From a virus, in the UHGV virus genome UHGV-0249779: 11,814 bases of DNA; one strand, given 5' to 3'. A model generated the notes under the pieces. That model searched no databases and was not told where the DNA came from. It saw nothing but the letters and a program-made list of their open reading frames with translations. The position numbers and the translations under genes are program-made. Below are positions 2,815 to 11,814 of the stretch, piece by piece; the stretch's first letter is position 1; each line of letters begins with the position of its first letter.

Positions 2815-3195
2815 TTATTGGGCTTTAATGTAATTTTTCAACTTTGCAGTTTGCTCTACAGCGCTAGGAATGCATCCAAACATATTTGCGCATGAGGTTT
2901 GAACAACAATTTCGTTCTTATCGTTTCCTAAAGGTGTTTTTACAACCTGATATCCAAGCACGGCACTATTTCCAATAGGAGTGTATGTGGAAATTACCGT
3001 TTCATCTGCCATCTGAATTTTCCAACCAGAATTCATTGCTATCCAAGCTTTGGCTCTCGACCAATATGTATCGCATTGCTCTTTACCTTGACAGTAAACT
3101 GGTTGTTGAGCTTGTGCGGCAATTTGGGGATCTATTTTCTGAGCACATCCAGAGATGCTAATCAGAATAGCTGCTGTAACGAATAGTTTTCTCAT
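2815..3195 (-). CDS. Putative lipoprotein of unknown function, immediately downstream of and co-oriented with cI (rex-position moron)
   Basis: Starts MRKLFVTAAILISISGC: a signal peptide with lipobox ISGC. AAGGA lies 7 nt upstream of the ATG at 3195; the ATG at 3201 has too short a spacer. The gene is AT-rich relative to its phage neighbours. The 41-bp gap to the cI stop suggests co-transcription from PRM. Confidence 0.7.
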   Translation of the reverse strand: MRKLFVTAAILISISGCAQKIDPQIAAQAQQPVYCQGKEQCDTYWSRAKAWIAMNSGWKIQMADETVISTYTPIGNSAVLGYQVVKTPLGNDKNEIVVQTSCANMFGCIPSAVEQTAKLKNYIKAQ

Positions 3196-3242
3196 TGACA
3201 TTTCCTTTGTTTTGAATATACAACAAATAAATTGGCAAAAAA

Positions 3243-5859: not shown

Positions 5860-6557
5860 AAAACATCGCCGCACAGATGGTTAACTTTGACCGTGAGCAG
5901 ATGCGTCGGATCGCCAACAACATGCCGGAACAGTACGACGAAAAGCCGCAGGTACAGCAGGTAGCGCAGATCATCAACGGTGTGTTCAGCCAGTTACTGG
6001 CAACTTTCCCGGCGAGCCTGGCTAACCGGGATCAGAACGAACTGAACGAAATCCGCCGCCAGTGGGTTCTGGCTTTCCGGGAAAACGGGATCACCACAAT
6101 GGAACAGGTTAACGCAGGAATGCGCGTAGCCCGTCGGCAGAATCGACCATTCCTGCCATCACCCGGGCAGTTTGTTGCATGGTGCCGGGAAGAAGCATCC
6201 GTTATCGCCGGACTGCCAAACGTCAGCGAGCTGGTTGATATGGTTTACGAGTATTGCCGGAAGCGAGGCCTGTATCCGGATGCGGAGTCTTATCCGTGGA
6301 AATCAAACGCGCACTACTGGCTGGTTACCAACCTGTATCAGAACATGCGGGCCAATGCGCTTACTGATGCGGAATTACGCCGTAAGGCCGCAGATGAGCT
6401 TGTCCATATGACTGCGAGAATTAACCGTGGTGAGGCGATCCCTGAACCAGTAAAACAACTTCCTGTCATGGGCGGTAGACCTCTAAATCGTACACAGGCT
6501 CTGGCGAAGATCGCAGAAATCAAAGCTAAGTTTGGGCTGAAAGGAGCAAGAGCATGA
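5856..6557 (+). CDS. P: Replication protein P (DnaB helicase loader)
   Basis: 233 aa, near-identical from recall to lambda P (MKNIAAQMVNFDREQMRRIANNMPEQYDEKPQVQQ...). ATGA overlap with O. Confidence 0.95.
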   Translation: MKNIAAQMVNFDREQMRRIANNMPEQYDEKPQVQQVAQIINGVFSQLLATFPASLANRDQNELNEIRRQWVLAFRENGITTMEQVNAGMRVARRQNRPFLPSPGQFVAWCREEASVIAGLPNVSELVDMVYEYCRKRGLYPDAESYPWKSNAHYWLVTNLYQNMRANALTDAELRRKAADELVHMTARINRGEAIPEPVKQLPVMGGRPLNRTQALAKIAEIKAKFGLKGARA

Positions 6558-7014: not shown

Positions 7015-7263
7015 ATGCACGAACTATTTGTGCTGGTTTTGAGCACCTGTGCTAGCCTCAGCAATATGTCAGGTTGTTCAGTGGAAGTAGTGAATGTCAA
7101 CACCACAAAAGAGCCGGTAAACGTCTTTTATAGCAGGAAAGACTGCGAAGAAAGCATGAAAAACATTATGCTAAATCATGCTCTATACCATGAAGTATCA
7201 GGCAGAGAGCCATATATGGCAAAGTGCGAACAAGTATTTGTCTCAAAAAGTTTAATGAAATAA
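7015..7263 (+). CDS. Hypothetical small protein (82 aa), first gene of an AT-rich insertion
   Basis: AAGGGAG lies 7 nt upstream of the ATG. Low GC by eye compared with flanking ren and ybcN. Cysteine-containing with a hydrophobic N-terminus; no family recognised. Confidence 0.5.
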   Translation: MHELFVLVLSTCASLSNMSGCSVEVVNVNTTKEPVNVFYSRKDCEESMKNIMLNHALYHEVSGREPYMAKCEQVFVSKSLMK

Positions 7264-9181: not shown

Positions 9182-9266
9182 AGTCAGAGATAACAATCAA
9201 CTAATACTGTTTTGTTGATTTTTGCTTGTAATTGGCGTTTTGGTCTGATTTTTGTGGAGTAAGTTG

Positions 9267-9650
9267 ATGCGTGATATTCAGATGGTTCTTGAGCGTTGGG
9301 GAGCGTGGGCGGCTAATAATCATGAAGATGTGACCTGGTCGTCCATTGCCGCCGGTTTTAAGGGATTAATTCCTTCAAAAGTAAAATCTCGCCCGCAATG
9401 TTGTGACGATGACGCGATGATCATTTGCGGGTGCATGGCCCGTCTGAAAAAGAACAACAGCGATTTGCACGATTTATTAGTAGATTATTATATAGTCGGT
9501 ATGACATTCATGTCACTGGCAGGTAAGCATTGCTGCTCTGATGGTTATATCGGGAAAAGGTTACAAAAGGCTGAGGGCATAATTGAAGGGATGTTAATGG
9601 CATTAGATATCCGGTTAGAGATGGATATCGTTGTTAATAACTCTAATTAA
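9267..9650 (+). CDS. quuD: Late-gene antiterminator Q (QuuD/phage-82/21 type)
   Basis: 127 aa from ATG 9267, with GGAG 7 nt upstream: [21 protein letters not shown]...[20 protein letters not shown]..., matching DLP12 QuuD from recall. The track start at 9252 is a TTG. Confidence 0.85.
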
Positions 9651-9669
9651 TACGCCAATTATTTACTAA

Positions 9670-9701
9670 AAGTTATTAAAAATGGGGCGTTGAAACGCCC
9701 C
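9670..9701 (-). terminator. Rho-independent terminator for the porin transcript
   Basis: Hairpin GGGGCGT-tgaa-ACGCCCC (9684..9701), followed on the minus strand by ATTTTTAATAAC. Confidence 0.5.
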
Positions 9702-9724
9702 CAAAAATAAAGGGTAATATATAA
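9690..9724 (+). promoter_or_regulatory. Candidate late promoter PR' (Q-utilisation region)
   Basis: -35-like TTGAAA (9690..9695) with -10-like GGTAAT/TAATAT/TATATA candidates at 9713..9724, 17-19 nt downstream. Placement directly 3' of Q follows the lambdoid pattern. Sequence-only inference. Confidence 0.3.
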
Positions 9725-9789
9725 CAGAAGGTTTATATAGTTAGAAGCAAGGTTGTGCTTCTAAAGGAAGTGGCTTGAGGGAGCCACTT

Positions 9790-9830
9790 ATATGTTGGGG
9801 AGGCAAAGCCTCCCACAACATATCTTTTAG
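9790..9830 (+). terminator. Candidate tR'-like terminator (long hairpin plus CTTTT)
   Basis: 15/16-bp imperfect inverted repeat ATATGTTGGGGAGGC-aaa-GCCTCCCACAACATAT (9790..9823) followed by CTTTTAG. Preceded by two further hairpins at 9743..9762 and 9768..9789. Confidence 0.4.
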
Positions 9831-9838
9831 TAATCAAA

Positions 9839-10921
9839 TTAGAACTGGTAAACCATACCTACAGCAACGATATCATCGGTAGCAACGCCAGATGCTTTCG
9901 TGAAATCGCTCTTATCAATCAGGTTGATTTTGTAGTCAACAAAAGTGGACATATTTTTGTTGAAGTAATAGGTTGCACCTACATCAACATATTCAACCAG
10001 GTCCTGATCACCCCAAACACCCAAGTCTTTTCCTTTAGAATGCAGGTAAGCAACGGATGGACGCAGGCCGAAGTCGAACTGATATTGTGCAACAGCTTCG
10101 AAGTTTTGTGCTTTGTTGGCAATATGGTTATTACCAAAAACAGTCATGTTCTGGGTTTCAGAATAGGTGGTGGCCAGATAGATGTTGTTCGCATCATATT
10201 TCAGACCAGCTGCCCATACTTCAGCATTTTGACCAGAAGCATTCAGACCGTTGTTACCGTAGATAACCTGATTATTAGTGCGATCAGATTTAGCATAGGT
10301 TGCACCCACGCCGAATCCTTCATACTCATAAGTAGTTGAGAAACCGAAACCATCGCCATTAGCTTCAGTTACTTCATTTCGGTCATTTTTGCCCTGATAC
10401 TGAGCTGCAAAGTTCAGGCCATCAACCAGACCAAAGAAGTCGTTGTTACGATAAGTTGCAACACCTGTGGTGCGACCAGTCATGAATACATCTGTTTGGG
10501 TCCAGGTATCGCCACCGAATTCTGGCAGAACGTCGGTCCATGCACCGATGTCGTATGCTACACCGTAGTTACGGCCGTAATCGATGGAGCCGTAGTCACC
10601 GAATTTCAGGCCAGCGAAGGCAAGACGGGTTTTATCTTTGGAGGAACCTTGAGATTCAGCGCGGTTGCCTTTGAATTCATATTCCCACTGACCGAAACCA
10701 GTCAGTTGATCGTTGATTTGGGTTTCACCTTTGAAGCCAAGACGGGCATAAGTAGTATCACCATCATCTGCATCATTAGAGGAGAAGTAGTGCTTAGCAT
10801 TAACTTTCCCGTACAGATCCAGCTTGTTACTGTCTTTATTATAAATTTCAGCTGCCTGAGCAGACATCGCCATCAGTACTGATGCAGCTACAGCAGAAAT
10901 TGCCACTGTTAATTTTTTCAT
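9839..10921 (-). CDS. nmpC: Outer-membrane general porin of the OmpC/OmpF family, prophage-borne (NmpC/Lc type), apparently intact
   Basis: 360 aa. Signal peptide [23 protein letters not shown] followed by AEIYNKD...; C-terminal ...VGMVYQF with terminal Phe; a beta-barrel-like alternating aromatic/Gly composition. Location between Q and the holin, antisense, matches DLP12 nmpC and the PA-2 lc gene. Confidence 0.9.
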
Positions 10922-11349
10922 CGTGAGCCCTTTTTTTTGAACTATTATTAAAAAATGATGTCACTGCGCGATAAATATTCATCTAATCAATGTGATTATT
11001 TCAAGATGTAAGTTTTGGTTTCTCGTTTGATTTGTGAAGTAGATCTCTATTTTTATCTGAACTTTTTTCTATCGAATCCTATTCATAGCTCTTGGCTGAA
11101 TAAAAATAAATCTATTAGCCAATTTATATTAACGGCTGTTATTTATAAGTGCTCTATAATTTGAAGGTTCAATTTAAATCGGCTAAAAATAACACTGGAA
11201 ATTATTTGTTGGTTATTTGTTGAGGTTTTCTTATGTATTTGTGGTGGTGTTTTGAACACTCGGTAGCATTCTCGCAAATATCATTTAGTGGTTTACGTAC
11301 GTAAAAAATTGGTTATGCTGTTAAGAGTGGTTACTTCGTCACACAGCTT
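10922..11349. promoter_or_regulatory. Long AT-rich regulatory region upstream of the porin gene (porin promoter and 5' UTR, unresolved)
   Basis: A non-coding tract of more than 400 bp, strongly AT-rich with many A/T runs, immediately 5' of the porin start. No specific promoter hexamers could be assigned with confidence. Confidence 0.4.
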
Positions 11350-11382
11350 AAACCCGCCGTAGAGCGGGTTTTTCCATTTTTT
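11350..11382 (+). terminator. Rho-independent terminator-like hairpin about 110 bp upstream of the holin gene
   Basis: AAACCCGC-cgtaga-GCGGGTTT followed by TTCCATTTTTT on the plus strand. Confidence 0.55.
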
Positions 11383-11494
11383 GAGTCTCGATATTAGCTG
11401 ATAACCCAATACCTGAGTTATTCACTGACTCCGAGTCTGTTACGTTTCGTAGTATTCCCTCAATTTACACCCGCTTTGTCTGCGAGGTGGGGTT

Positions 11495-11710
11495 ATGAAA
11501 TCCATGGATAAGTTAACAACGGGTGTCGCCTATGGCACCTCAGCAGGTAGTGCCGGGTACTGGTTTTTACAGCTGCTAGATAAAGTCACGCCCTCACAGT
11601 GGGCGGCAATTGGAGTGCTGGGTAGCCTGGTATTTGGCCTGCTGACGTACCTGACAAACCTTTATTTCAAGATTAAAGAAGACAAGCGTAAGGCTGCACG
11701 GGGAGAGTAA
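11495..11710 (+). CDS. essD: Class II holin of the phage 21 S type (pinholin, EssD-like), with dual start
   Basis: 71 aa, [26 protein letters not shown]...[33 protein letters not shown], matching S21/EssD from recall. Met1 and Met4 give the 71-aa and 68-aa products. GAGGTGGGG upstream of the ATG. Confidence 0.9.
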
Positions 11711-11714
11711 TTCA

Positions 11715-11814
11715 ATGACTCAAAACTATGAACTGATTGTGAAAGGGATCCGCAATTTTGAGAATAAAGTTACGGTAACTTTAGCGTTACGGGACAAAAA
11801 ACGCTTTGACGGTG
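11715..11814 (+). CDS. 5' end of an unidentified ORF directly after the holin (partial, 33 codons)
   Basis: ATG at 11715 then MTQNYELIVKGIRNFENKVTVTLALRDKKRFDG. Hydrophilic N-terminus with no SAR or TM segment; not recognisable as R21/RrrD, lambda R or P22 gp19. Confidence 0.4.
   Translation, partial: MTQNYELIVKGIRNFENKVTVTLALRDKKRFDG

Follow-up and report, generated by a model that had tools for sequence, protein, structure and literature searches.

The right-hand end of an 11,814 nucleotide (nt) stretch of the virus genome UHGV-0249779 (the window, meaning the whole stretch of DNA that was analysed) carries the beginning of a lysis cassette, in which a gene encoding a pinholin-type holin is followed at once by a second open reading frame (ORF) that is cut by the end of the window. 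An earlier note on this DNA had recognised the pinholin-type holin at 11495 and had remarked that the ORF behind it is hydrophilic and lacks the signal-anchor-release (SAR) N-terminus expected of the endolysins that partner such holins; either an extra gene would lie between holin and endolysin, or the cassette would be non-canonical. The second ORF is the N-terminus of a DUF1327/YdfR-family protein and not an endolysin, and the apparent absence of a SAR endolysin next to the pinholin is an artefact, as the window ends 100 bases into a common annotated accessory gene.

The pinholin gene

The long form of the holin has 71 amino acids (aa) and is encoded at 11495-11710 on the + strand. It is an S21-type class II holin (pinholin), as judged both from its match to the Pfam family PF04971, 'Bacteriophage P21 holin S' (121 bits where 26 are required, E 2e-35, with profile positions 1-63 of 64 aligned), and from its identity to S71 of phage 434, with which it shares 71 of 71 residues; both results bear out the earlier assignment. 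The N-terminus has the dual-start motif MKSM (Met1 and Met4), and the phage 434 record points to a 68-aa form made from the internal start at Met4 (11504-11710, + strand). That curated record (L008) has separate ribosome-binding sites for an S71 antiholin and an S68 class II holin, and by comparison with these sites (L008 1985-1994) the Shine-Dalgarno region for both starts in the window is GAGGTGGGGT, at 11484-11493 (+ strand). By homology the 71-aa product would be the antiholin S71 and the 68-aa product the holin S68.

A composition test of the holin gives a weakly hydrophobic first transmembrane domain (residues 8-28, mean Kyte-Doolittle hydropathy (KD) 0.55, 57% Gly/Ala/Ser/Thr), a hydrophobic second one (residues 36-57, mean KD 1.44, peak 2.02) and a basic C-terminal tail (6 K/R and 3 D/E) that ends in ...KAARGE. 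Pinholins form small heptameric pinholes, through which the membrane is depolarised and a cytoplasmic endolysin is not released.

Two oddities of holin annotation were seen in passing. The holin of mEp460 (L005, 2218-2496) is annotated with 92 aa and its end sequence is that of the 71-aa S21-type holin, the extra 21 codons being probably an over-extended start call. Furthermore, fusions of holin and YdfR (PF04971 with PF07041) exist among the database entries of the YdfR family, and these probably stem from frameshifts or read-through calls.

The ORF at the end of the window

The holin stop codon, TAA, is followed by four bases (TTCA) and then by the ATG of the second ORF at 11715, which is the fifth base after the stop as the earlier note had placed it. 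A GGAG Shine-Dalgarno sequence lies at 11702-11705 (+ strand), within the last holin codons and 9 nt before the ATG. What the window holds of the gene (11715-11814, + strand) is its 5' part, 33 complete codons and one further base, and the 33 codons translate to MTQNYELIVKGIRNFENKVTVTLALRDKKRFDG, the same residues as were reported before.

These 33 residues match the Pfam family DUF1327 (PF07041) at profile positions 1-33 of 93 with 49.5 bits and an E of 5e-13, the gathering cut-off being 25, and since so short a piece alone reaches this score the ORF is not a chance one. They are indeed hydrophilic, with a grand average of hydropathy (GRAVY) of -0.58. The DNA at 11715-11814 is identical to positions 6416-6515 of a locus of Escherichia coli J31 (L001), where the gene has 114 codons and is annotated 'YdfR family protein', and this full-length homologue matches PF07041 with an E of 4e-42 (142.8 bits) and phrog_406 with an E of 1.5e-67; all the PHROG families that match it are of unknown function. 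Its highest 17-residue window has a KD of 0.68, and there is therefore no SAR or transmembrane segment. No muralytic domain was found in it either, Pfam giving DUF1327 only and NCBIfam no match, and it follows from the lack of both a hydrophobic segment and such a domain that the ORF encodes neither a SAR endolysin nor another recognisable lysis enzyme. A SAR endolysin identity was accordingly rejected on GRAVY, on the KD maximum and on the lack of a lysozyme domain; the earlier remark on the missing SAR N-terminus was correct, with DUF1327 found in its place. The RefSeq annotations 'essD: phage lysis protein EssD' and 'YdfR family protein' occur together in all 15 of the best-matching genomes listed.

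Continuation of the cassette in close relatives

The window as a whole is present in no complete E. coli genome of the collection, the best match covering 92% of its 11,814 nt at 96.4% identity, and the continuation past base 11814 was for this reason inferred from near-identical loci. The relatives used, four E. coli chromosomes and phage Chlobot, match the window's last 515 bases at 99.6-99.8% identity; E. coli J31 and Chlobot have 99.8% identity over 11300-11814. In both J31 and Chlobot the order is holin, 114-aa ydfR-like gene, a 90-aa ORF on the opposite strand, a 177-aa lysozyme gene and Rz. The opposite-strand ORF overlaps the 3' end of ydfR by 35 nt and lies in the 343-bp gap that separates the 114-aa form from the lysozyme gene.

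The lysozyme of the relatives belongs to PF00959 (E 1.4e-24) and matches the R21 structures 3HDE and 3HDF and the RrrD structure 4ZPU at ~1e-16, with E35, D44 and T50 aligned. It begins MNAKIRYGLSAAVLALIAVGAPAP (start MNAKIRYGLSAAVLAL...), with two basic residues within the first six positions, and these are followed by a stretch at residues 7-24, YGLSAAVLALIAVGAPAP, in which KD reaches 1.9 and half of the residues are Gly, Ala or Ser. Judged from these features the N-terminus would be SAR-like, as they are the hallmarks of a SAR segment, and the premise of the earlier note that S21 pinholins pair with SAR endolysins holds in the relatives.

The enzyme shares 92% identity with R of Stx2 phage II, a phage that has no insert and in which R begins 4 nt behind the holin stop, at the very point where ydfR starts here. 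Likewise in phage 434 the identical holin is directly followed by a curated 165-aa 'SAR endolysin'. The holin-stop junction, ...GGGGAGAGTAA followed by 3-4 nt and an ATG, is conserved in all loci compared, and where ydfR is absent the same junction serves the lysozyme gene. The pairing of pinholin and SAR endolysin thus appears intact in the relatives, and ydfR, which lies between S and R, is an insert that can be present or absent. It is very probable, therefore, that the cassette of the window carries this common optional insert, and consists of pinholin S, the YdfR accessory gene and then an inferred 177-aa SAR-type lysozyme with Rz/Rz1. The gene order in J31 and Chlobot thus favours the first of the two options raised before, an extra gene between holin and endolysin, and speaks against a non-canonical lysis cassette.

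The logic of the cassette is that of phage 21, phage 434 and DLP12, i.e. a pinholin with a SAR endolysin, the holin being 100% identical to S71/S68 of phage 434 and the lysozyme of the relatives being a homologue of R21 and RrrD in which the catalytic residues E-D-T align. It differs from phage 434 in that the 165-aa endolysin of that phage adjoins the holin, whereas in the window the YdfR gene comes between, and in that the lysozyme of the relatives is of the 177-aa Stx-phage/RrrQ type, which is only 34% identical to the 434 enzyme. The Stx phages (for example Stx2 phage II, Stx2 phage 86 and H-19B) have an S21-family pinholin together with a 177-aa R, and the S proteins of Stx phages have been classed as pinholins of the P21 holin S family (PMC10462455). 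Stx2 phage 86 and H-19B have a DUF1327 gene right after S, whilst Stx2 phage II has no insert. In Stx2 phage 86 the YdfR-family protein has 268 aa, with a long unrelated C-terminal extension, and is accompanied by a different convergent ORF; both Stx2 phages, II and 86, have an ant gene between R and Rz.

Distribution of the arrangement

The arrangement of holin, 3-4 nt spacer, DUF1327 gene and 534-bp lysozyme gene is also that of the K-12-type Qin prophage (essD/essQ-ydfR-rrrQ-rzpQ), Stx2 phage 86, mEp460, PhiR12_2 and E. coli JKHS004, all of which show the order holin-ydfR-lysozyme-Rz. DNA similar to ydfR is present in 4314 of 5426 complete E. coli genomes, at up to 9 places per genome, and a YdfR-family protein in 101 phage records, including those of H-19B and BP-4795; for comparison, an S21-type holin is found in 438 phage records. 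The earlier note had allowed that the ORF might prove to be an accessory gene that is well known and common at this position, and given these counts that is what it is, with ydfR present in Qin and in many phages. The family, its annotation and its position between holin and lysozyme are all previously known and very common. YdfR/DUF1327 is thus carried by ~80% of complete E. coli genomes.

The YdfR family

A word-indexed search returned 322 clusters (at 90% identity) of 94-200 aa, essentially all of them from Escherichia and Shigella, and an exhaustive profile search, run against 1.84 billion representative proteins, returned only 89 clusters, the weaker matches of which comprise, as stand-alone proteins of 72-76 aa, nothing beyond the core. 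In the alignment of the family (A1) a core of ~75 residues is conserved, and the invariant residues include E6, V9, K10, G11, N14, K18, V21, L25, Y53, E54 and A57. J31, Chlobot and the further relatives all have the core of ~72 residues, including the Y53-E54 ('FYE.A') helix motif; the sequence in the window reaches residue 33. The C-termini are modular, with forms of 103, 104, 114, 116, 161, 169, 176, 183 and 268 aa (A1; L004 2501-3307, L006 2501-3010, P0023 and P0008).

An AlphaFold2 model of the full-length homologue has strands at residues 5-14, 18-27 and 34-43 and a helix at 50-73, this block having predicted local distance difference test (pLDDT) values of 63-85, and in the C-terminal 45 residues pLDDT is below 50. 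Fold searches gave no significant relative. The YdfR-like protein is soluble and cytoplasmic, with a conserved N-terminal domain of ~70 residues and a variable tail.

The closest known counterpart is YdfR of the K-12 prophage Qin (UniProt P76160), which belongs to the same Pfam family, PF07041, as the ORF of the window. Qin has the same order of S21-type holin, 4-nt spacer, ydfR, 177-aa lysozyme and Rz, and K-12 YdfR is 82% identical and 97% similar to the window's homologue over residues 1-72. The two differ in their tails: K-12 YdfR has 103 aa, with a different C-terminal tail, and its gene overlaps rrrQ, whereas the closest relatives of the window have forms of 114 or 116 aa with a 'EKRPIILEAQNVWITYKGKLPGRITGSLKTPP' tail.

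DUF1327 genes in other contexts

A protein search combined with contig look-ups found seven distant DUF1327 contexts, from Pantoea, Sodalis and metagenomic sequences, and in all of these the gene sits in a lambdoid late region, in different slots. In Sodalis it precedes the tail gene L, and in Pantoea it stands between Q and a cassette of class III holin, GH19 endolysin and Rz; the other slots are M-L, I-J, one behind the tape-measure gene and one upstream of the terminase. The variety of late-operon slots occupied by the distant members argues that the DUF1327 family behaves as a mobile late-operon moron, and that it is not part of the pinholin-SAR lysis system as such.

A second regularity is that a small convergent ORF follows the DUF1327 gene within -53 to +28 nt in 6 of the 7 distant contexts (L012 4001-4545, L014 4001-4506, L015 4001-4445, L017 705-1232, L019 4001-4634 and L021 511-966) and in 3 of 7 E. 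coli and coliphage loci (L001 6416-6998, L004 2501-3631 and L006 2501-3218). The partners are soluble, mostly acidic proteins of 58-128 aa. Those of Pantoea L012 and metagenomic L019 share 67% identity even though the pairs sit in different slots, suggesting that gene and partner are able to move together. By BLASTP among the partners this 67% match and a weak one between the partners of L014 and L015 were the only ones, the rest being unrelated at this sensitivity. The partners fall into at least 6 PHROGs of unknown function, and a Pfam family was found for none; all but one match PHROG families, and they are therefore recurrent phage proteins. A PADLOC defence search gave one weak match only, with an E of 0.003, to the C-terminal extension of the 169-aa variant. 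The PADLOC result and the non-toxic overexpression of K-12 ydfR give no support to a known defence or toxin-antitoxin identity.

Possible roles of the YdfR-like protein

What the YdfR-like protein might do is suggested by its K-12 orthologue. The first 72 codons of K-12 ydfR were recovered in a two-hybrid screen, full-length YdfR interacts with RNase E(1-597) and residues 1-72 bind the N-terminal half of RNase E; RNase E(1-598) co-purifies with Strep-YdfR, and the eluate contains DNase-resistant nucleic acid (PMC13232886). Overproduction of K-12 YdfR changed few transcripts, and caused neither toxicity nor a growth defect (PMC13232886). An RNA- or RNase E-directed role is favoured here because of this study and because of the 82% identity over residues 1-72, and such an activity, as opposed to one directed at lysis, may be taken tentatively as the most likely mechanism.

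In outline, the YdfR-like protein would be translated from its own GGAG, 9 nt 5' of the ATG, on the late transcript, and lysis would proceed in the usual way, with the pinholin depolarising the membrane, the membrane-tethered SAR lysozyme then being released and becoming active, and the spanins disrupting the outer membrane. YdfR would bind host RNase E on its catalytic N-terminal half, perhaps RNA as well, and might thereby modulate RNA decay or processing during late development or stress. Phage modulators of RNase E or the degradosome with which it may be compared are Dip/gp37 of phiKZ, gp0.7 of T7 and Srd of T4. A function in RNA decay upon prophage induction, if established, would contribute to phage-host biology in a modest but real way.

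Several points weigh against this account. The link to RNase E comes from one study of overproduced or tagged K-12 protein, whose authors could not exclude a contaminant as the RNA binder (PMC13232886). The C-terminus of the protein, the endolysin and Rz of the window's own genome lie past the end of the 33 codons, and among the relatives themselves the continuation takes at least two forms, one of 114 aa with the convergent ORF and one of 116 aa without it. Finally, a role in lysis is conceivable given that in E. coli the gene is found strictly between S and R and that an envelope phenotype has been cited for ydfR.

Such a role would make the YdfR-like protein a lysis regulator, i.e. a cytoplasmic factor that tunes the triggering of the pinholin or the release of the SAR endolysin. 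All E. coli and coliphage loci examined place the gene exactly between holin and lysozyme with the shared stop/ATG junction, and in K-12 the ydfR stop overlaps the start of rrrQ by 4 nt, which suggests translational coupling. Furthermore ydfR was important for envelope integrity in a screen cited by PMC13232886, a phenotype that was not found in the main text of PMC3879167 and that in a Qin knockout could be due to polarity on rrrQ. It is nevertheless quite unlikely that the protein regulates lysis, as it has no membrane segment, identical or near-identical holins serve SAR endolysins without YdfR in phage 434 and Stx2 phage II, the distant family members have their places among tail genes, before the terminase or ahead of a holin of another class, and overproduction of K-12 YdfR is without a growth defect. 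It would seem far less likely still, to the point of being negligible, that the second ORF itself encodes a lysis enzyme, be it an atypical endolysin or another, whose export signal would be internal or unusual. The sole support for this is the position directly after the holin, whereas the full-length homologue matches DUF1327 and no lysozyme, amidase, peptidase or transglycosylase family, its PHROGs are all of unknown function, it has no hydrophobic segment, and a bona fide lysozyme gene follows in every related locus; for practical purposes this reading of the ORF is refuted.

The convergent ORFs allow a different explanation, in which DUF1327 and its neighbour form a two-gene mobile module, perhaps for superinfection exclusion, for defence or anti-defence, or of a toxin-antitoxin-like kind, and the lysis cassette is just one landing site. 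The recurrence of the convergent ORF in six of the seven distant and three of the seven E. coli contexts is what would be expected of such a module, as are the 67% identity between the L012 and L019 partners in different slots and the PHROG matches of all partners but one. On the other hand the partners belong to at least 6 unrelated PHROGs and to no Pfam family, K-12 Qin, mEp460, JKHS004 and Sodalis have DUF1327 without a partner, and overproduced K-12 YdfR is not toxic. Small convergent genes are moreover general in morons, and the pairing may only mark an insertion hot spot. A module of this kind is unlikely. An RNase E-directed role could also be joined to mobility, with DUF1327 as the conserved half of a mobile moron module that usually has a polymorphic small acidic partner on the opposite strand. 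The DUF1327 domain would dock on the host enzyme at its catalytic half, so that RNA is redirected or protected, and specificity would come from the variable C-termini and the partners. The insertion points of the module would then be S-R, Q-S, M-L, I-J, after the tape-measure gene and before the terminase. We regard this combination as doubtful, though not as far-fetched as the module of defence or exclusion type, and were it true it would define a previously undescribed family of prophage-encoded accessory modules that target RNase E.

The upstream region and the window as a whole

A strong terminator-like hairpin with a T-run lies at 11350-11380 on the + strand, between the Q gene (9252-9650) and the holin gene and ~115 bases 5' of the holin start. 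In the terminator scan its stem, AAACCCGCCGTAGAGCGGGTTT, is 8 bp long, 5 of the pairs being GC, and TTCCATTTTT comes next; the hairpin is probably the late-operon terminator (tR') that is read through by Q-modified RNA polymerase. A sigma-70 promoter scan of 9600-11814 found no consensus-like site, and the late promoter was therefore not located; an Rfam scan of the window at gathering thresholds gave no match.

Between the Q antiterminator gene and the holin gene there is a porin gene of the OmpC/NmpC/Lc type on the reverse strand (360 aa, 9839-10921), as there is likewise in DLP12 and phage 434, and the spacer of 570 bp before the holin contains the hairpin. Several matches break at position 11697, 13 nt 5' of the holin stop, which indicates a mosaic junction there.

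The window is a segment of a mosaic lambdoid prophage, with exo/bet, a cI-like repressor gene, replication genes of the O/P type, ninB, rusA, Q, the porin gene and the holin gene. Two of its ORFs have a lipoprotein-like N-terminus, namely a 128-aa ORF that adjoins the repressor gene (2815-3201, - strand, MSMRKLFVTAAILISISGCAQ...) and an 82-aa ORF in the nin region (7015-7263, + strand, MHELFVLVLSTCASLSNMSGCSVE...), and these are possibly morons expressed in the lysogen.
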